From a virus (lineage: Duplodnaviria > Heunggongvirae > Uroviricota > Caudoviricetes), in the IMG/VR virus record IMGVR_UViG_2713897073_000004: 17,345 nt of DNA. One strand, written 5' to 3'. Each line of letters begins with the position of its first letter. Within the stretch, counting starts at the first letter, position 1. The translations under genes and the position numbers were made by a program. This document shows, in pieces, positions 704 through 17,345 of the stretch. The notes under the pieces are model-generated. The model did not search any database and had not been told where the DNA came from. It worked only from the letters and a program-made list of their open reading frames with translations.

Positions 704-1255
704 TTACGCTTCCTGCTCTTTCTTGATACGTTGCACCGTCTGTGTGCTGACACTGAAATCTTTTGCTACGCTCCGAATTGATCCACCATTCGCGAGAGCG
801 GCAGCAATTCCTGCTCGATCAATTGCTTTTCCATTACCACGTTTTGCTATACGCCCAGCGGCCTTAGCTGCCGCGATCCCTTCACGTTGACGCTCAAGCA
901 TCATTTCACGCTCCATTTGTGCCACTGCTGCAAGCACTGTGAGCATCATATTCCCTGCGGGAGAGTTCTTCCCTGTCTTAAAGTCTTCTTTATGGAAATG
1001 CACAGACACGCCGCGCTCTGTTAATTGCTCAACCGTTGCCAGAAGGTCGGCTGTATTACGACAAAGGCGATCAATACTATGGACGTGTAACACGTCACCC
1101 TCCCGCACATAGTTCATCATTGCCTCAAACTGTGGGCGCTGAGTGTTCTTGCCTGACGCTTTATCTTCAAAGACTTTATCAAGAGTTACTCCAGCTAATT
1201 GACGGTCTGTGTTTTGTTGCACAGTCGATACCCTAATGTATCCAATATTAGCCAT
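704..1255 (-). CDS. serine recombinase, resolvase/invertase family
   Basis: 185-codon minus-strand ORF. Probable start is the second ATG (1255, AAGGA about 8 nt upstream), giving MANIGYIRVSTVQQNTDRQ. N-terminal YIRVST motif with the nucleophilic serine, SIDRLCRN, AVAQMEREMMLERQREG core, and a C-terminal HTH (SIRSVAKDFSVSTQTVQRI). An alternative start at 1261 adds two residues. Confidence 0.88.
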   Translation of the reverse strand: MANIGYIRVSTVQQNTDRQLAGVTLDKVFEDKASGKNTQRPQFEAMMNYVREGDVLHVHSIDRLCRNTADLLATVEQLTERGVSVHFHKEDFKTGKNSPAGNMMLTVLAAVAQMEREMMLERQREGIAAAKAAGRIAKRGNGKAIDRAGIAAALANGGSIRSVAKDFSVSTQTVQRIKKEQEA

Positions 1256-1754
1256 TTTCATTTTCCTTCTGTGTTGATTTGTGTGTAGTGATTATTGATC
1301 GTGTTGATTAGGTGTGTAAAGGACTTTTTTCACTACGAAATTCGAAGGTTTTTAGTGTGGTGATTTAGCCTGCTTTATCACTACACGTCTTGCATGAGAA
1401 TCATGTAGTTACGTTTTGGTAAAATTAGCAAGCTATTAAATAGTGTGTTTATTTTGAAAAAATAATTTTTTGTTGCATTAAAGAAAACTTGTTCGACAAA
1501 TAATAGATTGATTTTTAATCAACAATTTCTGATAGTGCTCTGTAAGCCGCATTACATAAGGCTTTGCGAAAGTGATGTAAAAGTGAAGAAAGCTAACATT
1601 GCACTTTTTAAGCTACTTTTCATTGAATTTTTACGTAGAAATTACACAGGGATTAATCATCAATTAATCTTGAATTTAAGCCTGTTTTTTTAATTTTTGA
1701 TAGCAAGAAACACTTTTAGAAGATCATTGCACAGATGTTATGTGATAAATGGAT

Positions 1755-1878
1755 GTAACGATGGGTTACATTCAGCTATCTGAAATACTCTCTGTAAGAA
1801 ATTTGGTAGTAACGATATTACACATCGGTAGTAACGATACGTTACATCGGCAGATGATTGGTTGTAACGAAAGGTTAC
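1755..1878. repeat. cluster of four GTAAC-N5-GTTAC palindromic sites; candidate iterons or recombinase/regulator binding sites
   Basis: GTAACGATGGGTTAC (1755-1769), GTAACGATATTACAC (1809-1823, degenerate right half), GTAACGATACGTTAC (1831-1845, perfect), GTAACGAAAGGTTAC (1864-1878, perfect). Sites 2 and 3 sit inside a tandem 22-23-bp repeat GGTAGTAACGATA..TTACACATCGG. Centre-to-centre spacings are about 54, 22 and 33 bp. Confidence 0.6.
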
Positions 1879-2628
1879 ACAATAAGACTAACATCTATAA
1901 TACTAATAATAAAACTAACTATTAAACTATATAATATAATTCTTTTTATTTTTATAAGAATAATTATAGGGATACCCGTTAGGAAGTCTTCGAATATCCC
2001 TTAATCTATTGGCATTCGCCAGAACCTTGCACAAGTTAGAGTGTTAGTCGTTAGACTGCTTGTCATAACACATAGTTTTTGTTTGTTGATGTTAGTTAGT
2101 AGATCTATGTTCGCTAATACCGCTCACAACGAATATGTAATCTACTATGTGCAATAACCTTGTGTGCTACGCATTAGCGATGTTAGCACATAGACACAGA
2201 CAACAACCAACAACAAACAAAAAAGAATGGTTTTAGTAGTTGAAGGTTAAATAAGATTCTACCGCTTAAATCAAGCCGTAGGCGAGCTAAACGTATATAA
2301 GGTAGGGAAACACCTTAGCGGTAATAGATTAGCTCGTTATAGAGCTTCTGAGGAGCTTTACAGGTATTTTATAAGATGTCTGAAATCATAGTTTATCTAT
2401 CCACCATCTTTCCATCACCTGATAAATCAAAAATAAGCCCCTTAAATAAACCTCTGACGAGATAAACAGCCATTAGATAAGGCAATGTATTGCTTTTATC
2501 AAAACTTCGTTAGAACGCGTTTTAGAGCGTTTTAGACAATAATGAAGAATAGCACTACACAGGAGAGCACGAATTGCTAAGAAAAAATGTAAGTACATGA
2601 AAAAGATCAGATTTTTTATGAAAAGGTA

Positions 2629-2657
2629 TTGACAAACGTCTCTTTCTGTGCAATAAT
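2629..2657 (+). promoter_or_regulatory. sigma70-type promoter for the small-gene operon
   Basis: TTGACA (2629-2634), 17-nt spacer, AATAAT (2652-2657); consensus -35, 5/6 -10, optimal spacing; about 125 nt upstream of the first operon gene. Confidence 0.5.
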
Positions 2658-2781: not shown

Positions 2782-2958
2782 ATGAAATATTTTACTCCAC
2801 AGGATGTAGTAGAAGCCTGGAAACGTGGTGAGATCAACCGCTTTAAAGTAAGGATGTATAGAAACACCGCTCGCCGTTGTGGTTATCCAGAGCGTGAAAA
2901 ATGTTTTGACGATGCACTGAAAATTATTGATGAACTGCGTAAAGCTGAGAAAGAATAA
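2782..2958 (+). CDS. hypothetical small protein (58 aa), first gene of the AT-rich operon
   Basis: ATG 2782 preceded by AAGGAGG (2768-2774, 7-nt spacer); MKYFTPQDVVEAWKRGEINRFKVRMYRNTARRCGYPEREKCFDDALKIIDELRKAEKE, stop TAA 2956-2958. Not in the ORF track (under 60 aa). The minus-strand track ORF 2779-3012 is its antisense shadow. Confidence 0.6.
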   Translation: MKYFTPQDVVEAWKRGEINRFKVRMYRNTARRCGYPEREKCFDDALKIIDELRKAEKE

Positions 2959-2980: not shown

Positions 2981-3148
2981 ATGAGCGAAACCAAGAAACC
3001 AATTCCACGCACTTACCTACACGTTGACCCTGAAATTTTCAAGATTTTATTTTCTGAAGCCAAGAAAAGGCAAGTTATGGTCAGTGATTTGATGTTAGAA
3101 ATCATTACTGAAGCAGCAGAGAACATCAAACAAAAAAAGGGTAAGTGA
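2981..3148 (+). CDS. ribbon-helix-helix (CopG/Arc/MetJ-like) DNA-binding protein, 55 aa
   Basis: Start at the internal ATG 2981 of track ORF 2927-3148, with GAAGGAGA 5-6 nt upstream. MSETKKPIPRTYLHVDPEIFKILFSEAKKRQVMVSDLMLEIITEAAENIKQKKGK shows a beta-strand (RTYLHVD), helix A, short turn, helix B pattern typical of RHH proteins. Fold call is from pattern only. Confidence 0.5.
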   Translation: MSETKKPIPRTYLHVDPEIFKILFSEAKKRQVMVSDLMLEIITEAAENIKQKKGK

Positions 3149-3201: not shown

Positions 3202-3882
3202 ATGTCTAAAATTAAATTGATTCGTGAAAAACACCAGTATGTTGATAAACAAACAGGAGAAATTAAAGACCGAACTTTGAATATACCGCATTACTTTTGT
3301 GAGATTGAATTCATCTACTCCTCAAATATTGAGGATGGAAGAGCGAAGTTTAGTGCAGAAATGCAAAAATTATATTGCTATGTTTCAGATTGGGAGAAAT
3401 CAGGGGGGATATGTTTTGAAACACAAACGAAGTTAAGTAAGGTTTGTGGCTGTAGCCGTAAGACAGTTAATGAATTGATTGGTCTTATGATTAAAATCGG
3501 TCTTTTAGAAGAGGTCGGAGAACGAATCCCAAAACGTCCATTAAAATTACGTGCGCTACCTCTCACAGATGCACATATTACTCCCCCTAGAGAGTCATCA
3601 CTACCTGATCCTTCTGAGAAAGAAGACGAATCTAATGAAATATTGAATGTTTCCGAAATCATCCTTGAAGAAGAAACACAGGAATCAGCGTTCCCTGAGC
3701 GGCCCGAAATTTTTACTTGGCTTCTTTCCCTTGATAAGAAGAAACCACCGCACGAAGAAACAGAAGATTTTGTAAAACGTGTATTAGATTCAAAGAATAT
3801 CTATCTTGAGAAACAGGCTTTTCACGATCTGATAATATCTCTAAGAGAAAAAAGTGAAATATACGATTCGATACCCTTCTAG
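3202..3882 (+). CDS. winged-helix DNA-binding protein, HTH_36-like (replication-initiator/regulator type) with acidic C-terminal region
   Basis: Start at MSKIKLIRE (ATG 3202, AAGGAG 9 nt upstream); the track ORF starts earlier at 3145 with no RBS. KLYCYVSDWEKSGGICFETQTKLSKVCGCSRKTVNELIGLMIKIGLLEEV matches the HTH_36 pattern seen in phage/plasmid replication-initiation proteins. C-terminal half is E/D/P-rich. Confidence 0.55.
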   Translation: MSKIKLIREKHQYVDKQTGEIKDRTLNIPHYFCEIEFIYSSNIEDGRAKFSAEMQKLYCYVSDWEKSGGICFETQTKLSKVCGCSRKTVNELIGLMIKIGLLEEVGERIPKRPLKLRALPLTDAHITPPRESSLPDPSEKEDESNEILNVSEIILEEETQESAFPERPEIFTWLLSLDKKKPPHEETEDFVKRVLDSKNIYLEKQAFHDLIISLREKSEIYDSIPF

Positions 3883-6407: not shown

Positions 6408-6791
6408 ATGGCTAACCCATATGGAAAATTAAAAGCAGTGAATGCGGATAATTCCCGTTCACGCTGTAAGGTAGTAGCTTACGCTGCTGATCCAGTGCTG
6501 CAAGATCGCCTCGTCAAACTGGCTTCACCTCTCACTGACGATCTTATTGTCGGGGCTTTGCTGAAAGCCGATGGCACCAAAGCAACAACCGCATCTGATA
6601 TTGCTCACGTAGTAGTTGAACCGGCTTATGAAGGACAGGAAAGCGTAGTGGTTGCACATCCTACTTTCGTTATTCTGGCTGAAGATGGGATTGAATTTAA
6701 CAGCATGGAAAAGGCAAGTGTTATTGCAAAACTGCAATCTCTCGGCTTTGTAATTGCTGGTTATGAAGAACTTGCGATCCCTACGACTTAA
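6408..6791 (+). CDS. hypothetical protein (127 aa)
   Basis: ATG 6408 with AAAGGAAAA upstream, 4 nt after the previous stop; codon usage is more balanced than in the AT-rich operon. Confidence 0.65.
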   Translation: MANPYGKLKAVNADNSRSRCKVVAYAADPVLQDRLVKLASPLTDDLIVGALLKADGTKATTASDIAHVVVEPAYEGQESVVVAHPTFVILAEDGIEFNSMEKASVIAKLQSLGFVIAGYEELAIPTT

Positions 6792-6805
6792 CAAGGAAAA
6801 TAATA

Positions 6806-7837
6806 ATGAATGATTTATCAACATATTTTGGCGTTAATACTGCGGTAGTAACTCCATTTGCTTATGAGAATGCACTTAATACCCTGATTACTAATCTCGA
6901 TCTGTTCGATGTGCAATATCATACAGAAAACAGCATTCTTCTTACCGACCTGATTGATCAGTTTGTGCAGGTAGCTGGGGAAACCTCGCCTTACACTCAA
7001 AGCAGCTGGAACGCCTCTAAACGTCAGGAATGGTCAAACAAACTTTTCCAGATGAAGCACGTCGGCAGTATTAACGCTGTTACTTCTCGTGACCTGGAAC
7101 AATACAGCCGCCAATATCCAAACCGTTCTGATGCTATGCTGGTAGCGGTTAATGATTTCTCTGAGGCTCATTACCGTTCACACGCAAACCGTGTTGAAGT
7201 GGATCTGATTACCGCGCTGCTGGGACTGAAAGTTGAATCTGAATATGCCGGACAAGGTGATCTCGACTTCCTCGACGGTCAGGCTAAAACCACGGTACCC
7301 GCTATCGACTTTGCATCGACTAGTGTTAACCCGTTCCTTGCTATTCGTAAAGCGGTGCGCTTACAGAGTGAAAAGCTGGGGTCTGGTCTTGCTGCAAAGC
7401 GAACTGGTGTAATTATCTTTGCTGCTGGCGCTGCTGCTGATGGTTTGTCATCTAACCCGCTGATCAGTGACATGGTGAAATATGCAGGTGATGCGAGTGC
7501 TACGGCCCTGTTTACCCGTATGGTTGATTCTAACCCAGCCTATGACTCTTTCCAGATTGGTGGGATCACTGTTATTGATGTGTCAATGTTTCCTGAGATT
7601 GTTGCTCACATCGGAGAGAACGGTTTCGCAATTGTTCCGGTAATGGATAAGTCGGCACAGTGTTACCAGCTTCATAGCGGCGTTGGTGTGCGTCATGCTG
7701 AGTTAGGTCAAGATGCCGTGTTACATCACCAATATCTAATCAAGGATGAATTCCAATTCCCATCTGTGGTTACTGAGACATCTTATCTGCCAGTAAACAA
7801 CATTCCGCAAGCTATCATCTTCGGATCTGCTGCGTAA
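6806..7837 (+). CDS. hypothetical protein (343 aa), no recognisable catalytic motif
   Basis: ATG 6806 with CAAGGAAAA upstream; long clean ORF 14 nt after the previous stop. No Walker, HUH or nuclease motif found by eye. Confidence 0.75.
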   Translation: MNDLSTYFGVNTAVVTPFAYENALNTLITNLDLFDVQYHTENSILLTDLIDQFVQVAGETSPYTQSSWNASKRQEWSNKLFQMKHVGSINAVTSRDLEQYSRQYPNRSDAMLVAVNDFSEAHYRSHANRVEVDLITALLGLKVESEYAGQGDLDFLDGQAKTTVPAIDFASTSVNPFLAIRKAVRLQSEKLGSGLAAKRTGVIIFAAGAAADGLSSNPLISDMVKYAGDASATALFTRMVDSNPAYDSFQIGGITVIDVSMFPEIVAHIGENGFAIVPVMDKSAQCYQLHSGVGVRHAELGQDAVLHHQYLIKDEFQFPSVVTETSYLPVNNIPQAIIFGSAA

Positions 7838-7977
7838 TAAAGCATTAATAGACGATTCCCCATAGGGGCAATAAGGTAAGGGATAATCATATAAGTAAAA
7901 TATGCGCTGTCTCTTGCCCTTATTTTTTTTCTACTGTCTACAGACCCAAATAAAAATATATATGTGAGAGAAAACCA

Positions 7978-8190
7978 ATGAACGCAGAAAATTCACAGGC
8001 ATTAATTCTTAAATCTGTAAAAGAACTGGCAGCTATTAGCGAGGAATCAGTTATAAACACATCGGCGCTTTGCCGCCTTTTAGAAATTGATGCAAATAAT
8101 GTGCGGCAGCGTGTGTTTCAGACTGGATGCAGCACTTTTGAAGCAATTGCATACTACTGTTCTAAAAACAATAACAAACAACAATTATAA
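7978..8190 (+). CDS. small putative HTH protein (70 aa)
   Basis: ATG 7978; segment NTSALCRLLEIDANNVRQRV looks like a helix-turn-helix; sits directly upstream of the 613-aa gene. Confidence 0.5.
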   Translation: MNAENSQALILKSVKELAAISEESVINTSALCRLLEIDANNVRQRVFQTGCSTFEAIAYYCSKNNNKQQL

Positions 8191-8208
8191 TGCAGGGAAA
8201 CTATTAGA

Positions 8209-10050
8209 ATGCTTGAAATTAATGCCGCACGTATCTCGAACGTTATAACATTTACGACCGACTCCAAAAGCTTACAGAAAGCTAAGAATGAAGTAGAAAA
8301 ACTTCGTAAACAAATGGCGGCGGTGAAAGATATAGAATTGCGTGTTAAGACACATAAACAATCAACCGCTAAAGCAAAAAAAGACGTAGACGATATTGCT
8401 AAAAAGCAAGCACAGGCAGATAAAGCCAATGCTAAAGCACAATTAGCCGCTCAACGTGTAGTTGCAAGAGAACAAAAAGCCCTGGCAGCACGGAAAGAGA
8501 AGGCTGAATTAAAGCTTTTAGACGTTGGAGCAAGCATTAGCGCATTGCACCGTCTTTCTGTAGCGGAACAATATAAAGCTATTGCACAGGCTAGAGAAAT
8601 TGCCCTCCAATATGAAAGAGGCGCTATTAGTCTGGCACGTATGAATAGCCAAATGAAACGCCTACAACAGCAACAACGTAAGATTAATGGCAATCGTAAC
8701 GCTCACGCTAAAGCCTATGCACCTGTTAAGGGTAGCGGGAGTATTGGCGGCGGTGCTGCGGCTGTTATGCTGGGCGGCTTAGGCGCTGGCGCTGCATATA
8801 TGGCTATGAGCAAAGCCTCTGAATTTGTTACTAACAGCTTTGCGAATGCTGAAACGCTGGGTGAATTGTATAGCCGTGCCAAGCTGGGCGGTGTAGACGT
8901 TAACCAGATGAACAATATTGAGCAATGGGCGTATAAAAACGGCGTTGATTCAATGATGGGCGAACAAGGTAAACGTAAGTATCTCGATCAGATGAAAGAT
9001 GTGCGTGAACGTGCAACCAAATCTTATGATGAAGCTGAATATGTAGTTGATAAGAAAACTGGTAAAGGAGAATGGAAGGGCGGCGATAGCGGCATCAATA
9101 CTTTAATGAATGAAGGATTCCTAACTAAAAAGGATCTAAAAGACTTTGCTGATAATCCGGCTGGTCTGGTTAGTAAAGCAGTTCAGGGAATGGTAGCTAA
9201 AGGCTATTCAGATGCACAAATCGGTAGTCGTCTGGAAGATCTGGCTGATGATTTGATGCTCACCTCTAAATACTGGACACGCTCCGCTAAAGAAGTGGAA
9301 CAATCAGCACGAGAACAACGAGAATCAGGGCGCTGGGTAACACAGGCACAACAGGAAAGCGTTATTAAATTCCGTGAACTGAATAATGCACTTAGTGGGC
9401 TTTCTGACTCACAAGGGATCGCCTTTGTTGATGGCTTTATGAAATCTCTTGATCCGAAAGTGATTGAAGAGTTTAAAAAGAGCATGGTTGCAATGCTGCC
9501 AATGTTTACCAAATTAGGCGAGGCTGTAGGTGGTCTGCTTAATGCGATCATGAAAACTATCAACTGGCTGATGAAAAACGACGAGAAGACGGCAGCTATT
9601 CAGAAGAATTTAGGTGATGCACCGCCACTATCTAACGAAGGAATGAAGCAGAATCTTTCTAATCTCACTCCTGATCAATATAAAGGCGCTGGCACCGGAA
9701 CAATTAAGCCAGATAACAGCAATTCCCTGGTTAACACTATTAAAAGCTGGTTTATGCCAGAAGAAACGGTAGGTGGGGCACAGGCTGTAAATCAATACAG
9801 TCTCGAAGGACAAAACATTGCAAATCTGAAACAGAGTGCAGCACAACAAGCTTTCAAGGCTCCTTCTTACACCTTTGCACCTGTTATTAACTTCAATCCA
9901 GAATTACAAGTAAATGCAGAAGTGCCGCTAACTATCGAATCAGACACCGGACGATTGAGCGAATTTATCGACTTCAAATCAAAGGCATCTTCCGCTGAGT
10001 TTAGCAAGCTATTAACGCTTGGTGTTATGTCAGGCGGGTCAACCTATTAA
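8209..10050 (+). CDS. large hypothetical protein (613 aa): N-terminal K/A/Q-rich coiled coil, glycine-zipper hydrophobic segment, large C-terminal domain
   Basis: ATG 8209 with AGGGAAA upstream. Residues about 20-165 are K/A/Q/E-rich heptad-like sequence; residues about 175-201 are GSGSIGGGAAAVMLGGLGAGAAYMAMS (nt about 8731-8811), a Gly/Ala-rich membrane-type segment; the remaining roughly 400 aa are mixed. Composition recalls tape-measure or pilot/ejection proteins, but no homology is established. Confidence 0.8.
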   Translation: MLEINAARISNVITFTTDSKSLQKAKNEVEKLRKQMAAVKDIELRVKTHKQSTAKAKKDVDDIAKKQAQADKANAKAQLAAQRVVAREQKALAARKEKAELKLLDVGASISALHRLSVAEQYKAIAQAREIALQYERGAISLARMNSQMKRLQQQQRKINGNRNAHAKAYAPVKGSGSIGGGAAAVMLGGLGAGAAYMAMSKASEFVTNSFANAETLGELYSRAKLGGVDVNQMNNIEQWAYKNGVDSMMGEQGKRKYLDQMKDVRERATKSYDEAEYVVDKKTGKGEWKGGDSGINTLMNEGFLTKKDLKDFADNPAGLVSKAVQGMVAKGYSDAQIGSRLEDLADDLMLTSKYWTRSAKEVEQSAREQRESGRWVTQAQQESVIKFRELNNALSGLSDSQGIAFVDGFMKSLDPKVIEEFKKSMVAMLPMFTKLGEAVGGLLNAIMKTINWLMKNDEKTAAIQKNLGDAPPLSNEGMKQNLSNLTPDQYKGAGTGTIKPDNSNSLVNTIKSWFMPEETVGGAQAVNQYSLEGQNIANLKQSAAQQAFKAPSYTFAPVINFNPELQVNAEVPLTIESDTGRLSEFIDFKSKASSAEFSKLLTLGVMSGGSTY

Positions 10051-10097
10051 TCATCACTGTGGGGCTGTTTAGCCCCCTTAAATAAGGATTACAAATT

Positions 10098-10775
10098 ATG
10101 GCAATGGGTCCGTTAACCATTGGTCGCCCGACTGAGGCGAAAATCAACAGCACAAGCAACGATAGCAACGGTAGAACAACTAAAGGGGGTAACGGCTTTG
10201 CGATCATTACCTCTAATCTCGGCAGTGGTGCAAATGCTGCTTACAATGACTACCAGGCATTATCATTTGATAGCGTGGAATCGACGAGAGTTAGCAGAAA
10301 TGCAGACGTTACAAGCTATGCTGTCGAATCAGGATCAGAAGTTAGTGATCATGTTCAAATACGGAATAACAAGTTCACATTACAAGGGCGTATCTCTGAA
10401 ACCGTATTGAAGCTCAATCCTGATATGATTAAGAATGCTGGAATTAACGGCAATCGACGTATGCTTATGCTTGAATACCTAAATCAGTTGATGGACAGTC
10501 GCCAACCTTTCCTACTTGTCACTGAGTTAAAAAATTATGACAACGTTGTGTTAGTTGGCATGTCTTACGCAGAAGAAGCAAGCGAAAGCCTATTGTTTAC
10601 TCTTGATTTTGAGCAAATCCGTCTTGTCTCTAAAGCAACTACAAGCGCAATTGCGGTAAAAACAGCACCAAATAAATCTGTAGGAGGCCAGGTTAAAATG
10701 CAGGTAAATACAACAGAACAGAAAAATCAAAAAAGCCCAGGGCAAGACGTTGTAACGCCAGTATTTAAACAATAG
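10098..10775 (+). CDS. hypothetical protein (225 aa), S/T/N/G-rich N-terminus
   Basis: ATG 10098 with AAGGA upstream; last gene of the cargo operon; the overlapping alternate-frame track ORF 10120-10410 is rejected. Confidence 0.7.
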   Translation: MAMGPLTIGRPTEAKINSTSNDSNGRTTKGGNGFAIITSNLGSGANAAYNDYQALSFDSVESTRVSRNADVTSYAVESGSEVSDHVQIRNNKFTLQGRISETVLKLNPDMIKNAGINGNRRMLMLEYLNQLMDSRQPFLLVTELKNYDNVVLVGMSYAEEASESLLFTLDFEQIRLVSKATTSAIAVKTAPNKSVGGQVKMQVNTTEQKNQKSPGQDVVTPVFKQ

Positions 10776-10816
10776 CCTTAAACGCCTATGAAACGCTCTG
10801 TAACGAGATAATCATA

Positions 10817-10848
10817 AAAGAGGCATCAGCCTATATTGAAGCCTCTTT
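10817..10848. terminator. hairpin between convergent genes; candidate bidirectional terminator
   Basis: AAAGAGGC (10817-10824), 16-nt loop, GCCTCTTT (10841-10848), between the cargo operon end (10775) and the integrase stop (10856); A/T-rich on both flanks. The loop is large, so stability is uncertain. Confidence 0.35.
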
Positions 10849-10855
10849 ATTACGT

Positions 10856-12133
10856 CTATAGCGTTGTTTTACGCCTTAAATTTGATTTTTTATTGATTGA
10901 TAAGCCTTTCTCTATTTCAGGATAGCGTAAAAGCTCAATATATTTTTTAAGCTCTACTGGAGAAGCTGCATTTTTGCTATATGTGCGGAATGTTTCTGTA
11001 TTGCCGCGTGTATGGCCCAGGAGAAGGGCGATCCTGTCTTCTGGAATTTGATTTCGATCAAGAAGCTGTGCTACTCCGTGTCTCAGAGAATGAAACACTT
11101 TCCTTTCTGTTCCCTTTTCCCCTAAAGCCTTTCGTTTAGCTCTTGTAAATCGTTGTGTATGCCACGTAGAGCGTTTACCGTCAGCACGCTCTGTAATGCT
11201 GGCGTGATAGAACAAAAAGCCATTGTGAGGCTTTTCACGAAGAGATAACACCAATGGAGTGATAAGGCTATGCACAGGCACAAGACGTGCCGCAGCTTTC
11301 GTTTTTCCCTGTGTGATTTCAAAACACAGCACACCTTCGATCTCTTTCACATCGTCTATTGTGAGACTTGCTATCTCATTGATCCGCATCCCTGTATATA
11401 AACCGATAAGACATAAAGCCGTCATTTCTTTGTTTTCTGCTGAATTACCGGAAAATACTTGCAACACCTGCAATAGCTCTTTGTTAGAAAATGCCTCGTA
11501 GCTCTCTCTACTTTGTGCCACATCAAGCCTATGCCCTCGCCAGGGGGAGAGCGCCCTTTCTGGCGCATCGTGGTAACGTGATGAAGCTAATTCCCATAGC
11601 TGGGCCATTGGGCTGATATAATTTGCAATTGATTGTTGTGAAAGAGTTTTTTGCATGTGTTCAATCCAGCCTGTAACAGTGGTGCGGCTTACATCTTGCA
11701 ATGCAATATCAGGCTTTTTACGGTAGGAGAGAAACATCTCTACCGCTTTTCTTGCCTTAGCTAAAGTGGCTGGCTTCTTCTTCGTGCTGTTAATTGTCAG
11801 GTAGATTTCAAGAATTTTAAGCAATGACGGACACGAAGACGCTGTATCTTGCATTCTGGTAGCTGTTTTGGCGTATTTAGCCTTACTGCGTAACAGTTCC
11901 AGCGTGTTTTCTATTGTGCTGTTTACAGGGGCAACACTCTCCCGTAAGCAATGGTATTCATCTGCAATCTGATCACGCTTTCTACGTGCAACACGAAGAT
12001 TACTTGTGTGCAGACTTCTGACAAACGTCCTTTTTCCTTCAAAAAAGGGCTGCATATACACAGGCAGCGTGATCCTTAAATAGTAGTTACCGTAAGAATC
12101 ACAGATTAAGTATTGGTTAGGCTTGTATCTCAT
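10856..12133 (-). CDS. tyrosine site-specific recombinase/integrase with DUF6538-like N-terminal domain
   Basis: Catalytic signature of tyrosine recombinases: TGMRINEIASL (Arg), VFHSLRHGVAQLL (HxxR), LLGHTRGNTETFRTYS (His...Tyr). N-terminus YLICDSYGNYYLRITLP...GKRTFVRSLHTSN fits the YYFRRR-type arm domain. Start placed at the internal ATG 12133 (GGAG 5 nt upstream); the track start at 12190 has no RBS. Confidence 0.85.
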   Translation of the reverse strand: MRYKPNQYLICDSYGNYYLRITLPVYMQPFFEGKRTFVRSLHTSNLRVARRKRDQIADEYHCLRESVAPVNSTIENTLELLRSKAKYAKTATRMQDTASSCPSLLKILEIYLTINSTKKKPATLAKARKAVEMFLSYRKKPDIALQDVSRTTVTGWIEHMQKTLSQQSIANYISPMAQLWELASSRYHDAPERALSPWRGHRLDVAQSRESYEAFSNKELLQVLQVFSGNSAENKEMTALCLIGLYTGMRINEIASLTIDDVKEIEGVLCFEITQGKTKAAARLVPVHSLITPLVLSLREKPHNGFLFYHASITERADGKRSTWHTQRFTRAKRKALGEKGTERKVFHSLRHGVAQLLDRNQIPEDRIALLLGHTRGNTETFRTYSKNAASPVELKKYIELLRYPEIEKGLSINKKSNLRRKTTL

Positions 12134-12310
12134 AAAATCTCCGGCTAAAGTGTCGGAGCGTTTGTAATGTGAAAATTGATTGTGACGCATAGAAAATGAT
12201 TATTTTTCTATAAGATTCAATCAATTAGTAATGGTCGTAGTGATGGCATTAACACGAGATTAATCGAGTGTTTTACTCCTATTATCGGCACCATTCAAAC
12301 ATCTCCCCAA

Positions 12311-12458: not shown

Positions 12459-13673
12459 GTGAAACTCAATGCCCGTCAAATAGACACAGCCAAGCCAAAA
12501 GAGAAGGCTTACAAGCTGGCCGATGGTGGCGGTTTGTATCTCTTGGTAAAACCTAATGGAGGTAAATACTGGCGACTTAAATATCGTGTAGCAGGTAAAG
12601 AGAAGCTATTGGCACTAGGTGTGTATCCTGAGGTTACTCTAGCCGATGCTCGGGCAAAACGTGAAGATGCGAAAAGAGGTATCGCTGGTGGTATCGATCC
12701 GATGGAAGCGAAACGAGAGGAAAAGATTGCCCGGGAAACGCAGTTAAACAACACCTTCAAAGATATTGCCCTTGAGTGGCACAGCAGCAAATTAAAAAAA
12801 TGGTCTGCTGGTTATGCTTCAGACATCCTCGAAGCCTTCAACAAAGATGTGTTCCCTTACATTGGCAAAAAACCAATCGCCGAAATCAAACCACTTGAAC
12901 TTCTGAATGTGCTGCGGCGCATCGAGGGGCGCGGTGCGACAGAAAAAGCCAAAAAAGTGAGGCAGCGGTGCGGGGAAGTTTTCCGCTATGCAATAGTCAC
13001 TGGTCGCGCAGAGTATAACCCTGCACCAGACCTTACTAGCGCGATGCAAGGCCATGAATCTAATCATTACCCTTTCCTTACGACCAAAGAATTACCTGAT
13101 TTTTTCAAGGCATTATCCAGTTACTCAGGAAGCGCATTGGTTGTTATGGCGGCTCGCCTACTGATTATCACCGGCTTGCGAACTGGCGAACTACGTGGCG
13201 CATTATGGGATGAAATTGATTTCAACAAGGCTATATGGGAGATACCCGCTTCACGTATGAAAATGCGGCGGCCTCATATTGTGCCATTGTCTGAGCAGGC
13301 TCTTTCGCTTATTGGGAAGATTAGAGAAATAACAGGCAATTACCCTCTTATGTTTCCCGGGCGCAATGATCCAAGGAAAACAATGAGTGAGGCCAGCATA
13401 AACCAAGTGTTTAAGCGCATTGGCTACGCTGGACGTGTAACTGGTCATGGGTTCCGACACACTATGAGCACGATTTTGCATGAGCAGGGCTATAACACCG
13501 CGTGGATAGAAACGCAGCTCGCTCACGTTGATAAGAACTCAATTCGTGGCACATACAACCATGCGCAATATCTGGATGGACGGCGGGAGATGCTTCAATG
13601 GTATGCCGACTATATGGATTCTCTCGAGCATGGCGGAAATGTGGTGCATATGGTGTTTGAAAAACACGCATGA
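12459..13673 (+). CDS. int: P4-family tyrosine integrase
   Basis: GTG start 12459 with GGAGG 9 nt upstream. N-terminal arm-binding domain typical of P4-type integrases (AKPKEKAYKLADGGGLYLLVKPNGGKYWRLKYR), catalytic Arg (ITGLRTGELR), HxxR (GHGFRHTMST), and C-terminal LAHVDKNSIRGTYNHAQYLDGRREMLQWYADYMD with the catalytic Tyr. Confidence 0.92.
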   Translation: MKLNARQIDTAKPKEKAYKLADGGGLYLLVKPNGGKYWRLKYRVAGKEKLLALGVYPEVTLADARAKREDAKRGIAGGIDPMEAKREEKIARETQLNNTFKDIALEWHSSKLKKWSAGYASDILEAFNKDVFPYIGKKPIAEIKPLELLNVLRRIEGRGATEKAKKVRQRCGEVFRYAIVTGRAEYNPAPDLTSAMQGHESNHYPFLTTKELPDFFKALSSYSGSALVVMAARLLIITGLRTGELRGALWDEIDFNKAIWEIPASRMKMRRPHIVPLSEQALSLIGKIREITGNYPLMFPGRNDPRKTMSEASINQVFKRIGYAGRVTGHGFRHTMSTILHEQGYNTAWIETQLAHVDKNSIRGTYNHAQYLDGRREMLQWYADYMDSLEHGGNVVHMVFEKHA

Positions 13674-13980
13674 AACAACTGGACAAGTATACAGAGGTTT
13701 ACTAAAGTATAGGGGAGTAGATTGATAAAAACTCACAGAGGATTGCTATTTAACAGTTAGCCTTGGAGAAGGGCAATCGCTCTTTTATAAACGAAGGTGT
13801 ATTGAGCCTTCTACGCTGCTGAAAAGCGGAATGTTCTTTAACAGGCTTTGGCGCTGACAAAGCGCAATTGTTCTTTAAAACTACTGGATGTCACGCCTAA
13901 TAGCGTGATCCTGCCGAAATGCAGGGTAGCTCTACCCTTGTGGAGCAAACAAACCAAAACAATCTGACTATCTTTTATAA

Positions 13981-14013
13981 AAGACCGCAATATGTTTTTC
14001 ATATTGTGGTCTT
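13981..14013. promoter_or_regulatory. inverted repeat upstream of alpA; candidate operator
   Basis: AAGACCGCAATATG (13981-13994), TTTTT, CATATTGTGGTCTT (14000-14013): 14-bp arms, 13/14 complementary, about 90 bp upstream of the alpA start. A second palindrome GGGTAG-CT-CTACCC lies at 13924-13937. Confidence 0.4.
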
Positions 14014-14100
14014 TGGCGTATTCGACATTTGACGCAAATAAAACTCTCGCCATTCGTTGCAGGAGGGGGTTATTGCGTCATTAGTACAGGATATTAATAA

Positions 14101-14304
14101 ATGGCTAATTACAATTCATTAATTCGTCTCTCTGAAGTTCAAAGGCGAACTGGTTATAGCAAAGCATGGATTTATCGTCTTATTAGTCAGGGGAGGTTCC
14201 CTAAACAGGTAAAAATTGGAAGTCGGGCAATTGCTTTTGTTGAGTCTGAAATAGATGAATGGATTGAGAAGTGTATATTAGAATCTAGAGACGAGGTGGC
14301 CTGA
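14101..14304 (+). CDS. alpA: AlpA/Vis-family transcriptional regulator (excisionase-like HTH)
   Basis: 67 aa; LIRLSEVQRRTGYSKAWIYRLISQGRFPKQVKIGSRAIAFVESEIDEWI is the classic AlpA signature; positioned just downstream of a P4-type int, as in P4-like islands. Confidence 0.85.
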   Translation: MANYNSLIRLSEVQRRTGYSKAWIYRLISQGRFPKQVKIGSRAIAFVESEIDEWIEKCILESRDEVA

Positions 14305-14735
14305 TGGAAAAGAAAAACCGCCCATTACAGGCGGCTAATTCAGATATTCGCGTATCTGATGTTACGCCCCTGACAAAATCCCTTCAAGCACCAAAGCGCA
14401 CGCCGAAAAAGCATCGTGCCCGAGTCTATATGCTGCGTACTGGTATAGAGGGATGGACAGAAAATGACATTCTTCGCTACTGCCGTCTGTCTTCTGGTCG
14501 TAACTATGCAACAGAGTTAGAACGCCAGCTTGGAATCACTCTGGAGCGTATCGACGAAAAGAATCCTGATGGTATCGGAACACACCTTCGCTACCGTTTC
14601 TCCTGCCGTGGTGATGTTCTGAAAGTGATCACTCATGTTAACCATCTTGCGAACATAAATGATCACAACGGACTTTCTCAGCAGGAAATTGCCGACATTC
14701 TGAAACTCTACCCGGACGCGTTTAACGCCGCCTAA
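14304..14735 (+). CDS. hypothetical protein (143 aa)
   Basis: ATG 14304 overlaps the alpA stop (TGATG), indicating coupling; basic N-terminus (PKRTPKKHRAR); no motif recognised. Confidence 0.65.
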   Translation: MEKKNRPLQAANSDIRVSDVTPLTKSLQAPKRTPKKHRARVYMLRTGIEGWTENDILRYCRLSSGRNYATELERQLGITLERIDEKNPDGIGTHLRYRFSCRGDVLKVITHVNHLANINDHNGLSQQEIADILKLYPDAFNAA

Positions 14736-14747
14736 CGGAGACTAAAA

Positions 14748-15581
14748 ATGAACATCGAAAAAAGCAGATTAATTTCTGAGGCCGCCCCTCATCTGAACGC
14801 CTCTCTGGGCACAATTAACGGTAATGAATTTGCCGCAATTGTCCCGGTTATTTCTGGTCATATAGGCGGGCGTGAAACCAATATTGTTAGCGCAAAAGCG
14901 TTACACAAAGCGTTGGGCGTGGGAAAAGACTTCTCTACATGGATCACTGATCGCATCTCTGAATATGACTTCACCATTGGGCACGATTACTCAGTCCATA
15001 AAACAATTTCCCCAAATTTGGGGAAAAGCCCGAATGACGCGGCTTACAGCAAGATTAAGCAGTCTGGCAGACCCGGCAAAGACTATCTGTTAAGTGTCGG
15101 AATGGCGAAAGAACTGGCAATGATCGAACGCAATGATCAGGGTCGCGCTATCCGCCGTTATTTCATCCAGTGCGAGAAAGAATTACAGCGTAGCGTGCCT
15201 GAAATCGCCGCCCGCTATCGTCGCCAGCTAAAAGCCCGTATCAGTGCCGCAAACAACTTCAAGCCAATGTGCGATGCGCTGAATATGGCCCGTGCCGAGA
15301 TGGGGAAAACGACGCAGCAACACCACTACACAAACGAGAGCAATATGATTTCTCGTATCGTTCTTGGTGGGCTAACTGCTAAGCAGTGGGCGCGGATAAA
15401 TGGCTATTCTGGCGAACCTCGCGACCATATGAACGCAGAACAGCTTGAGCACCTCTCATATCTCGAAAGCACCAATATCACGTTAATTGATATGGGCATG
15501 GAATATGAGCAGCGCAAAGGAGAACTCACCCGCCTGTCGCAACGCTGGCTCGCCAAGCGTCTGGAGGCGGTCCATGTTTAA
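14748..15581 (+). CDS. putative antirepressor, AntA/AntB- or KilAC-like (277 aa)
   Basis: ATG 14748 with ACGGAG upstream. Segments FSTWITDRISEYDFTIGHDY and GKDYLLSVGMAKELAMIERNDQGRAIRRYFIQCE resemble phage antirepressor domains. Family assignment is from remembered motifs, not a search. Confidence 0.6.
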   Translation: MNIEKSRLISEAAPHLNASLGTINGNEFAAIVPVISGHIGGRETNIVSAKALHKALGVGKDFSTWITDRISEYDFTIGHDYSVHKTISPNLGKSPNDAAYSKIKQSGRPGKDYLLSVGMAKELAMIERNDQGRAIRRYFIQCEKELQRSVPEIAARYRRQLKARISAANNFKPMCDALNMARAEMGKTTQQHHYTNESNMISRIVLGGLTAKQWARINGYSGEPRDHMNAEQLEHLSYLESTNITLIDMGMEYEQRKGELTRLSQRWLAKRLEAVHV

Positions 15582-15756
15582 GCCGACAGGAACACCACAA
15601 CCTCAAAAACGCTACAAAGATGCCCACGGAGCACTCGTTACTGTCGAAAGCGTGTCTCACAACCGAGTGACGTTTTATCGCGACGGGTATCAATCGCCAT
15701 GCGTACAACCGCTGGCACGTTTCATGAAGGAGTTCGCGGAGGTTAACAAATGCTAA
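15574..15756 (+). CDS. hypothetical small protein (60 aa)
   Basis: Start taken at internal ATG 15574 (MFKPTGTPQPQKRYKDAHGALVTVESV...), which overlaps the AntA-like stop by 8 nt. The track ORF 15487-15756 extends upstream inside the preceding gene and is rejected as an N-terminal extension. Confidence 0.5.
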   Translation: MFKPTGTPQPQKRYKDAHGALVTVESVSHNRVTFYRDGYQSPCVQPLARFMKEFAEVNKC

Positions 15757-16382
15757 CCGCCCAGAAGAAGATATTTTCACTGGCTGGTATGTCGCCAAAA
15801 TCCAGCAATATGACAGCAAAGTCAGACATTAATACAGCAGATACAAGCAAAGTTTATCATTTGCTGGTGGTAGGAGCGGATGCCTTAACTATGTCAGAAA
15901 TTACGGTCGATGGTGTTAGCGTTGAGAAGGTCAGCGGCTATGCCAGAGAATTTCTGGTCGTAGATGACCTGTTCTGCTCGTGTAGTGACTCCACAAAAAC
16001 ATTCGTCCACGCGCGTGACGTTAACGAAATGAGCGCGATGTACTGTGCTTCTGGTTCTTCCAATAGTGAGTTTTCGGAGTCCATAAAAAAGAGCTTGCCG
16101 TTATGCGGCAACACGGTTTATGGTTATAAGGCACCTCATAAAACGGGTGCCGGGATTGGCGTCCTAAAAATTCTGAAGGCGACATATGACGCGCCGAGCG
16201 TCTTTTTTTATGTCGTAGGTCTGACTCACCCATTTTTTGGGCGTTGGTGTATAATCCAGCGCCTTTGTCAATCAATGGTGGCTCAGGCGGGGGCTTCTTC
16301 GGAAGCGCCGGTATCCATTCAGAGCCGGTTACGCCAACCCTGTCTGGGCTACCACCAGCGAAATTGGCGTTTCCGGTGGTAG
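15750..16382 (+). CDS. hypothetical protein; 3' boundary doubtful because the ORF runs through a terminator, a promoter and a structured RNA
   Basis: ATG 15750 overlaps the upstream stop (ATGCTAA), supporting a real 5' end. The last roughly 65 codons (from about 16188) overlap a GC hairpin plus T7 run, a TATAAT box and a stem-loop-rich region, and translate to low-plausibility sequence ([17 protein letters not shown]...RNWRFRW). Confidence 0.4.
16188..16209 (+). terminator. intrinsic terminator-like hairpin plus T-run
   Basis: GACGC (16188-16192), loop GCCGA, GCGTC (16198-16202), then TTTTTTT (16203-16209). Short GC-rich stem directly followed by seven T. Confidence 0.5.
16250..16255 (+). 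promoter_or_regulatory. candidate -10 element (TATAAT) for the leader RNA and downstream operon
   Basis: Perfect TATAAT at 16250-16255, about 40 nt after the terminator T-run; no good -35 hexamer at 16-18 bp spacing, so the promoter call is weak. Confidence 0.3.
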
Positions 16383-16393
16383 CGTAACCTGCT
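16276..16393 (+). ncRNA. candidate structured leader or antisense-type regulatory RNA (C4/CI-like immunity RNA or attenuator)
   Basis: GGCTTC-TTCG-GAAGC hairpin (16293-16306); TGGTGG (16276-16281) can pair with CCACCA (16352-16357), while CTACCACC (16349-16356) can alternatively pair with GGTGGTAG (16375-16382); AGCCGGTTACGC (16323-16334) is 11/12 complementary to GCGTAACCTGCT (16382-16393), which lies 8 nt upstream of the GGAGG of the next gene. Confidence 0.35.
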
Positions 16394-16412
16394 ATCTGAA
16401 GGAGGCTGCCAC

Positions 16413-16607
16413 ATGCTGGCTACTACCCCTACCCAAAAAACGCAATTTATCTGGATTATCGCCGCAGTTCGCCGCGATTGCCCGACAATTACCGCCAAAA
16501 TTCATCATATTGCTGCCGAGTCTGAACGCGATGCTCGCCGTTCTCTGGTGCGCGATCACGTCTGCTTTTTTGCTGGTCGTATCCGCATGGAGGTGGCACA
16601 TGATTAA
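16413..16607 (+). CDS. hypothetical small protein (64 aa)
   Basis: ATG 16413 with GGAGG 7 nt upstream; first gene after the structured leader. Confidence 0.6.
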   Translation: MLATTPTQKTQFIWIIAAVRRDCPTITAKIHHIAAESERDARRSLVRDHVCFFAGRIRMEVAHD

Positions 16608-16818
16608 AACCTACGATGTGCATATGGATCCCCTCGAACGCACAAGCCAGATCATCACACTGACAGAAGTGATTAACGACATTCTGGTGAGCAACTCTCC
16701 CTCACGAGACGAAAGACTGAAGGCGTTACTCGCGATATTGGATCTCGCCGTTCGTGACGTTCATTTCCTGCTGGAAGGTGGCGAAATGCCAGTAAAAACG
16801 GGGGCAACCAATGAATAA
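16600..16818 (+). CDS. hypothetical small protein (72 aa)
   Basis: Start at internal ATG 16600 (MIKTYDVHMDPLERT...), with GGAGG 16588-16592 upstream; overlaps the previous stop by 8 nt. The track ORF begins at 16510 inside the upstream gene. Confidence 0.6.
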   Translation: MIKTYDVHMDPLERTSQIITLTEVINDILVSNSPSRDERLKALLAILDLAVRDVHFLLEGGEMPVKTGATNE

Positions 16819-17005
16819 CTCAATTAATACCCCTCGCCTTACGTCCGCACTTCAATTAATCGAGCAAGCAGCGGCTGTCCTGGTTGCTGTCAGTCTTTCG
16901 GCTGAAGAAATGGACGCTGCTGATGTCGTGGATGCGATTAAAGCGTGCTCATCTTTGGTTAACGATGCCCGTGCAGAGCTGGTAATTCTTGGTGGTGAAA
17001 AATGA
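16811..17005 (+). CDS. hypothetical small protein (64 aa)
   Basis: ATG 16811 overlaps the upstream stop by 8 nt; alanine-rich helical sequence. Confidence 0.6.
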   Translation: MNNSINTPRLTSALQLIEQAAAVLVAVSLSAEEMDAADVVDAIKACSSLVNDARAELVILGGEK

Positions 17006-17265
17006 ATATCAACTTAATTTATCGTCATCCGTGTGAGCTGGAAATTGAATCATTGCTGGGGCGCGAAGAGCCATATCCAGACACATTCACTCCCGCAGAT
17101 TGCGCGACTGAACGGCTTACCAGAGCGCGCACAGGTCTGGTTCATGTGATGAATGAGATTATTCCCTCGGTGGGAGGGGAACAGGCGACAGTAATCAATA
17201 GCTGGCTACAAAAAGTTACCTCCCTGATAGATATCAGTTTAATCGATGTGGAGAGTGCGAAATGA
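17002..17265 (+). CDS. hypothetical protein (87 aa)
   Basis: ATG 17002 overlaps the upstream stop (ATGA). Confidence 0.6.
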   Translation: MNINLIYRHPCELEIESLLGREEPYPDTFTPADCATERLTRARTGLVHVMNEIIPSVGGEQATVINSWLQKVTSLIDISLIDVESAK

Positions 17266-17345
17266 CCAACATCCAGCTCATTGAAGCGCAATGTCGCATC
17301 GAACAGGTTCAGACTGTTTTAGGGTTCTGGCTTGAAGGGGCCAGC
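17262..17345 (+). CDS. hypothetical protein, 5' fragment (continues beyond window)
   Basis: ATG 17262 overlaps the upstream stop (ATGA); open to the window end (MTNIQLIEAQCRIEQVQTVLGFWLEGAS...). Confidence 0.5.
   Translation, partial: MTNIQLIEAQCRIEQVQTVLGFWLEGAS

Follow-up and report, generated by a model that had tools for sequence, protein, structure and literature searches.

Positions 1748 to 1968 of the window (the whole 17,345-nucleotide stretch of DNA analyzed here) are probably an iteron replication origin of a 10- to 12-kb, tRNA-integrating E. coli island, bound by the island's own initiator, which is encoded at 3202 to 3882. Three elements that characterize an iteron-type (theta) origin are present: same-oriented repeats spaced at approximately whole helical turns, an adjoining AT-rich element, and a nearby initiator gene of the matching type. 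The window is E. coli DNA (positions 1300 to 2800 are 99.9% identical to NZ_AP045764), and the repeats sit within a 1.5-kb noncoding stretch, 1262 to 2781. The features discussed below are as follows.

1748-1770, plus strand: iteron 1 (distal), AATGGATGTAACGATGGGTTACA; exact GTAAC-N5-GTTAC core at 1755-1769, conserved across type A loci
1802-1824, plus strand: degenerate iteron (site start 1809), GTAACGATATTACA; chimera of two ancestral sites
1824-1846, plus strand: iteron, ATCGGTAGTAACGATACGTTACA; exact core at 1831-1845, the same in all type A loci examined and on both backbones
1857-1879, plus strand: proximal iteron, ATTGGTTGTAACGAAAGGTTACA; exact core at 1864-1878, abutting the AT-rich block
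1880-1968: AT-rich block, putative DNA unwinding element; 89 bp, 12% GC, directly after the last repeat
2629-2657, plus strand: promoter-like site upstream of the initiator operon, TTGACA-17-AATAAT with TG, 11 of 12 matches; a consensus match only
3202-3882, plus strand: putative initiator gene, 226 aa, HTH_36; N-terminal winged helix, linker, acidic stretch, helical C-domain, and ...YDSIPF tip

The repeats and the adjoining AT-rich block

A preliminary description of this DNA reported three perfect or near-perfect palindromes and one degenerate palindrome at spacings of about 54, 22, and 33 bp, and our measurements agree. GTAAC-N5-GTTAC is matched exactly from 1755, 1831, and 1864, and the degenerate site starts at 1809, giving start-to-start spacings of 54, 22, and 33; a repeat finder returned the same array as four 23-nt units. 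Across 1748 to 1879, the order is AATGGATGTAACGATGGGTTACA … TTTGGTAGTAACGATATTACACA / ATCGGTAGTAACGATACGTTACA … ATTGGTTGTAACGAAAGGTTACA. When one mismatch was allowed, the sole further match to the motif in the 17,345 bases was at 12623 and was unrelated. Shuffled windows (dinucleotide preserving, n = 200) contained a mean of 0.35 motif matches, and 4 matches were reached in 0 of 200. The preliminary description named a similar density of the motif across the genome as part of what would speak against its proposal; all 72 exact sites in 668 kb of fetched DNA, three of them being reverse-strand copies of the same sites, fall within this origin context.

The repeat unit is 23 nt long and asymmetric (T-G-G-W-W-GTAACGA-NNN-GTTACA). 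Ten distinct exact copies in related loci gave the consensus T-G-G-W-W-GTAACGA-NNN-GTTACA-Y, in which neither the half-sites nor the GA that follows the first of them varies, unlike the three central bases. All type A units in the window are oriented along the plus strand; being directional and same oriented, they form a set of direct repeats, with an internal dyad in every unit. Neighboring iterons, spaced near multiples of ~11 bp, are roughly in phase, as the preliminary description had proposed. The outermost sites of the window, however, are 109 bp apart, which at 10.5 bp per turn puts them ~137 degrees out of phase, so that the further proposal that a bound protein would lie entirely on one face of the DNA holds only approximately. 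Relatives of the window have five iterons, spaced 54, 33, 22, and 33. Where the window has its degenerate iteron, five loci (L002, L003, L011, L012, and L037) have two separate sites 33 bp apart. The degenerate iteron joins the left half of one site to the right half of the next: a deletion between two GTAACGAT words has removed 33 bp.

Duplex stability in the 17-kb window is lowest over the 80 nt beginning at 1889, inside the AT-rich block that follows the last repeat (nearest-neighbor dG of -75 kcal/mol versus a mean of -106 ± 7.5). In related loci, each array type adjoins such a block on the block's upstream side. No DnaA box was found within 1262 to 2781 when we searched for TTATCCACA-like sequences with at most one mismatch and for TTWTNCACA, and there was one IHF-like match, at 1501. 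Just to the right of the AT-rich block, at 1969 to 2000, is a hairpin (GGGATA-N20-TATCCC) that is kept in most relatives; it is cleanly missing from L005, L009, and L010 and is therefore probably dispensable. Farther along, between the putative origin and the operon, positions 2050 to 2370 (plus strand) form a structured noncoding stretch. It includes a long hairpin with arms at 2076 to 2097 and 2202 to 2223 and a terminator-like hairpin at 2340 to 2360 followed by a T run, and its RNA minimum free energy is -84.7, compared to -69.8 ± 4.75 in shuffles (z = -3.1). This stretch could be a noncoding RNA or an origin-activating transcript. An Rfam scan of the whole window gave no matches in 1262 to 2781, the structured stretch included; the only confident matches were isrK and C4, in the neighboring element described below.

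Pairing of arrays with N-domains

We compared 74 loci, 16 from diverse E. coli and 58 from viral, metagenome, and genome collections; these 58 were retrieved with a pair of short anchor sequences that lie downstream of the AT-rich block. In the 74 loci, a cassette immediately precedes the AT-rich block and holds one of at least five unrelated semipalindromic direct-repeat arrays. The arrays of the other types have a repeat period of ~22 to 23 bp (examples are GGTAGGTCACTGTGAGCTA, CCTAGGAAATGAGTTCC, CCCCCACAGAATTCTGTTAC, and CCCCTATCAAGTCTGATAC). The types of repeat are listed here.

Type A: GTAACGA-N3-GTTACA, the array of the window
Type B: GGGGGTAGGTCACTGTGAGCTA
Type B2: GGGGGTCGGTCACGATGAC
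Type C: CCTAGGAAATGAGTTCC
Type D: CCCCTATCAAGTCTGATACC
Type Dp: CCCCCACAGAATTCTGTTAC

The type of the array nearest the AT-rich block was the type of the N-terminal domain (N-domain) of the HTH_36 protein in 57 of the 57 loci in which both could be read, with no mismatches, although the loci are related by descent and this figure therefore overstates the number of independent events. The pairs were A with A (12 loci), B with B (14), C with C (10), and Dp with Dp (15); in addition, five C arrays go with C2 proteins, which are 89% identical to C, and one B2 array pairs with a divergent B protein whose differences are clustered in the predicted recognition helix and wing. Distinct contexts among the 57 loci numbered 5 for A, 13 for B, 5 for C, and 4 for Dp. 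For all four main types (A, B, C, and Dp), correct pairing was seen on two backbones. Between the backbones (window versus second-backbone loci), the AT-rich block gives little or no BLAST match, and the C-terminal coding region aligns over just 38 to 71 nt at 84 to 95% identity; type A N-domain DNA is 96 to 98% identical between them. The preliminary description had offered three candidate binders, and the pairing on two backbones favors the HTH_36 Rep-like protein, with the repeats as iterons of an origin. Among 5,426 complete E. coli genomes, 75 have the type A N-domain and 76 have the AT-rich block with the two proximal type A iterons attached to it. The co-variation proves that array and N-domain are partners, not that replication is the purpose of the partnership.

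Some loci are more elaborate. Seven (L013, L017, L033, L044, L057, L069, and L072) have composite origins, with at least two tandem "array plus AT-rich block" units or with strings of relic arrays, which in L017 run in the order A-B-Dp-D-C-B. In composite loci, the protein type is always that of the last array. Non-A islands on the second backbone have one to three perfect type A sites, iteron 1 included, upstream of their other arrays; these sites are either recent relics or elements with a second role. Relic arrays might, for example, permit cross-replication by the initiator of a coresident island. We also considered whether distinct specificities exist to prevent clashes between coresident islands. 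As a strict rule, this idea was unsupported: the type A N-domain occurs three times in at least one genome.

The putative initiator and comparable systems

The winged-helix domain at the N terminus of the putative initiator comprises about residues 1 to 118 (DNA positions 3202 to 3555). N-domains of different types (~90 to 118 residues) share only 19 to 24% identity and are joined by a conserved linker, ALPLTDAHITPP, to a C-terminal part that occurs in three forms and varies independently of the N-domain. All 12 sampled family proteins matched Pfam HTH_36, the window protein falling just below the curated cutoff, and none of the 12 matched Pfam Phage_rep_O or RepA_N (PF06970) at an E value of ≤1. 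Matches to PHROGs were weak (5e-6 to 8e-3) and, one generic DNA-binding family excepted, were to replication initiators, O-like proteins (1.5e-4 to 3e-3), and DnaD-like loaders. A PDB sequence search returned spurious designed-repeat proteins only. Homologs are confined to Escherichia and Shigella, where their annotation goes no further than HTH protein or transcriptional regulator; a scan of species-representative genomes with an alignment of the initiator found two loci only.

An AlphaFold2 model, built on a 23-sequence alignment, predicts an N-terminal beta-hairpin and winged helix (pLDDT of 78 to 91), a disordered acidic stretch at residues 131 to 165, a small three-helix C-domain, and a disordered tip. 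When this model was searched with Foldseek, the longest alignments were to the N-domains of staphylococcal plasmid RepA proteins; DnaD N-domains were also among the matches, and generic winged-helix regulators (MarR and ArsR) were close behind. Against predicted viral structures there were 43 matches at an E value of ≤0.001, and those with a functional name were all replication initiators or replisome organizers. The predicted fold is thus initiator-like, but as evidence for a lambda O-like or RepA_N-like identity, the model is suggestive only. At their C termini, after the disordered acidic stretch, all initiator-like proteins end in …IYDSIPF, …IYDSLPF, or …(E/D)DFDIPF (3862 to 3882 in the window, with the same observation in L002 to L074). 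The C-terminal hexapeptide of SSB, DDDIPF, is conserved and binds DnaG and other partners (PMC5872125). The tip of the initiator resembles this hexapeptide and may recruit SSB-interacting host proteins.

The overall layout is shared with lambda-type and RepA_N-type origins and with the rep-ori modules of SaPIs and PICIs. The lambda origin is not known to contain DnaA boxes; the N-terminal half of lambda O binds ori and its C-terminal half contacts a partner protein; and the lambdoid phages lambda, 434, phi80, and 82 have differing origin specificities. The lambda ori and the putative island origin share an arrangement of four to six repeats with an internal dyad, bound by the initiator in lambda and presumptively so in the island, followed by an AT-rich tract, which is unwound in lambda. 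Lambda O and the island initiator likewise both have two modules, with a specificity pairing that differs between related elements. On the other hand, the lambda origin is inside the O gene, whereas the island origin (1748 to 1968) would lie 1.3 kb upstream of the initiator gene (3202 to 3882); moreover, the island initiator has no Phage_rep_O match at an E value of ≤1, and no P-like helicase loader gene was found. In vitro, lambda requires no iterons other than the pair closest to its AT-rich tract (PMC7466680), which parallels the rule seen in the islands that it is the proximal array that matches the initiator.

The iterons of RepA_N systems are semipalindromic direct repeats (PMC7145576), and the island has a comparable feature in TGTAAC-N5-GTTACA, set inside a directional 23-nt unit. 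Compared with the RepA_N proteins (RepA of the Vibrio cholerae PLE satellite and RepA of staphylococcal pSK41/pTZ2162), however, the island initiator has no Pfam match, and the similarity is at the level of the fold and modest. The PLE RepA is not known to work without its helper. The iterons of the island converge on a 5-bp spacer, whereas those of RepA_N systems have a poly-A tract, and the host is Escherichia, in contrast with the Vibrio cholerae and staphylococcal hosts of RepA_N systems. From the sequences, membership of the initiator in either the lambda O or the RepA_N family is not supported.

Like the SaPIs and PICIs, the island is chromosomal and has an integrase, iterons beside an AT-rich region, and initiator/origin pairs that are specific to individual islands. 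Ubeda et al. reportedly described, in 2007 to 2008, SaPI origins made up of iterons beside an AT-rich region, with island-specific initiator/origin pairs. The SaPIs encode a helicase as their Rep, and pri-rep genes are found in E. coli PICIs, whereas the island initiator is a small winged-helix protein without a recognizable enzymatic domain. With iteron plasmids (pSC101, R6K, F, P1, and RK2), the island shares direct repeats of ~22-bp period beside an unwinding element (a putative one in the island) and a winged-helix Rep. The Rep proteins of iteron plasmids contain a pair of winged-helix domains and in most cases depend on DnaA boxes; in contrast, 1262 to 2781 of the island yielded no DnaA box.

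The island and the alternative readings

Island-like sequence was present in 734 of the 5,426 complete E. coli genomes, nearly always in the chromosome, and a single genome had as many as five matching places. In other genomes, the island sites are beside tRNA-Thr (thrW), tRNA-Leu, or tRNA-Gly. Apart from the initiator gene, the window contains the following island genes.

704-1261, minus strand: serine recombinase, resolvase/invertase type with HTH
2782-2958, plus strand: 58-aa protein
2981-3148, plus strand: 55-aa protein (putative RHH)
Between 3882 and 6806, plus strand: several small unknown proteins
6806-7837, plus strand: weak capsid-like protein (phrog_29, 2.6e-4)
8209-10050, plus strand: tape-measure-like protein (phrog_16051, 2.9e-32)
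10098-10775, plus strand: Dit-like protein (PF21821, 1.8e-27)
10856-12190, minus strand: tyrosine integrase

No helicase, primase, or loader gene was recognized among the island proteins with NCBIfam, Pfam, and PHROGs. With its capsid- and tail-like genes and its integrase (within 6408 to 12190), an apparent origin and initiator of its own, and several tRNA sites, the island looks like an undescribed phage-satellite-type element and not like a decayed prophage. Searches with 1300 to 2800 gave no matches in a phage collection and two in a plasmid collection, both of them E. coli records and one of them 4.9 Mb in size. Metagenome contigs of ~12.6 kb, tested for a circular (episomal) form, had no terminal overlap and break at the tRNA-Thr repeat. 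Our literature searches (thrW satellite; CP4-6/intF/yagL; iterons in PICIs) found no description of the element. After the island, the window contains a second, different mobile element (12459 to 17345), with these features.

12459-13673: P4-type integrase
14748-15581: AntA-domain protein
15750-16382: Ash-family protein
16131-16208: isrK antisense RNA (Rfam)
16271-16359: C4 antisense RNA (Rfam)

The repeats could instead be an operator array, with the HTH protein acting as a transcription regulator, either a repressor or an activator, of a promoter in the AT-rich region (1874 to 1901) that reads into 2050 to 2370 and having no role in replication. We regard this as unlikely, although several observations are compatible with it. 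The right arm of the proximal iteron, GTTACA, is also a -35-like hexamer, and a promoter-like GTTACA-16-TATAAT at 1874 to 1901 overlaps this last repeat, so that a regulatory role is possible, as well as or instead of a replicative one. In addition, the generic winged-helix regulators MarR and ArsR are close structural neighbors of the protein, PGAP names it "transcriptional regulator," and the co-variation of arrays and N-domains fits an operator equally well. However, shuffles gave promoter-like matches at least as often as this region did, and the relatives of the HTH protein point to replication. The regulatory and replication roles of the repeats are not mutually exclusive.

The two other binders named in the preliminary description fared less well. 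If the repeats were accessory (res-type) or crossover sites of the serine recombinase, their grouping as palindromic sites would be typical of res, and the gene for a resolvase/invertase-type recombinase with an HTH, at 704 to 1261 on the minus strand, is indeed ~490 bp to the left. Nevertheless, we consider this highly improbable: an identical recombinase, WP_001273868, accompanies type A (L003), type B (L006), and type C (L007) arrays, L004, L005, and L008 have arrays but no annotated recombinase, and the sites do not adjoin the gene but lie at least 490 bp from it. Intact in the window, the recombinase gene is interrupted in the closest complete genome, the 99.9%-identical NZ_AP045764 (L001, 18067 to 19956), by an IS4-like element, ISVsa5, and is thus dispensable for upkeep of the island in the chromosome. 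It is just as improbable that the repeats are operators for the 55-aa protein, taken in the preliminary description for an RHH protein, or for the 58-aa protein at the start of the operon. Binding to phased palindromes is common among small DNA-binding proteins, and both genes are nearby, but the same proteins go with different arrays. WP_000005054, a 55-aa protein, is found alongside type A (L003) and type B (L005 and L006) arrays, and the 55-aa protein WP_000005056 and the 58-aa protein WP_021543225 each accompany both A and B arrays. Furthermore, the type C loci L007, L009, and L010 lack the 55-aa gene, and neither an RHH nor any other domain was detected in either protein with NCBIfam, Pfam, and PHROGs. 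Judged by these associations, neither the small proteins nor the recombinase is the specificity partner of the arrays. A chance cluster or a coding remnant has a negligible probability. A 58-aa open reading frame (1749 to 1925) does overlap the repeats, but we rejected it as a gene: no coding sequence is annotated there in the annotated genome records examined, and in relatives its slot is filled by unrelated arrays of differing length. The invariant half-sites with variable spacers, and a count of sites that no shuffled window attained, also argue against this explanation.

For the iteron origin, we infer binding by the initiator, unwinding, factor recruitment, and, indeed, replication of the island at all. 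Initiator dimers would bind the phased semipalindromic units via the N-terminal winged-helix domain, a step for which co-variation provides indirect but strong support. By analogy with lambda O and RepA_N systems, the assembled nucleoprotein complex would then strain and open the adjoining ~90-bp, 12% GC block, and the C-terminal domain and tail would bring in replisome-loading factors, either the host's or those of a helper phage. Specificity would be modular, the N-domain and the iteron array being exchanged together between islands to give at least five groups, of which the window represents type A. The kind of origin is itself ordinary; the exchange of N-domain and iterons among close relatives is its most interesting aspect.

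A more ambitious proposal, which we put forward tentatively and consider doubtful as a whole, is that these islands constitute an undescribed satellite-like family of Escherichia. Its initiator would be RepA_N-like, a type rare in Gram-negative bacteria, and would load the replisome through a tip that mimics the SSB tail (…DSIPF or …DFDIPF versus DDDIPF); there would be at least five orthogonal, swapped cassettes, and the composite origins would answer to several initiators.

Under the origin reading, a 1.5-kb intergenic region that looked "empty" would contain an origin, and a protein that annotation calls only an HTH protein or transcriptional regulator would be its initiator. The natural swaps of N-domain and iterons on otherwise similar backbones offer a system for studying how a winged-helix initiator reads its site, and the same swapped pairs may be usable for building orthogonal replicons. 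For the biology of these elements, the findings suggest that small islands with tail-like genes may replicate after excision, as phage satellites do.
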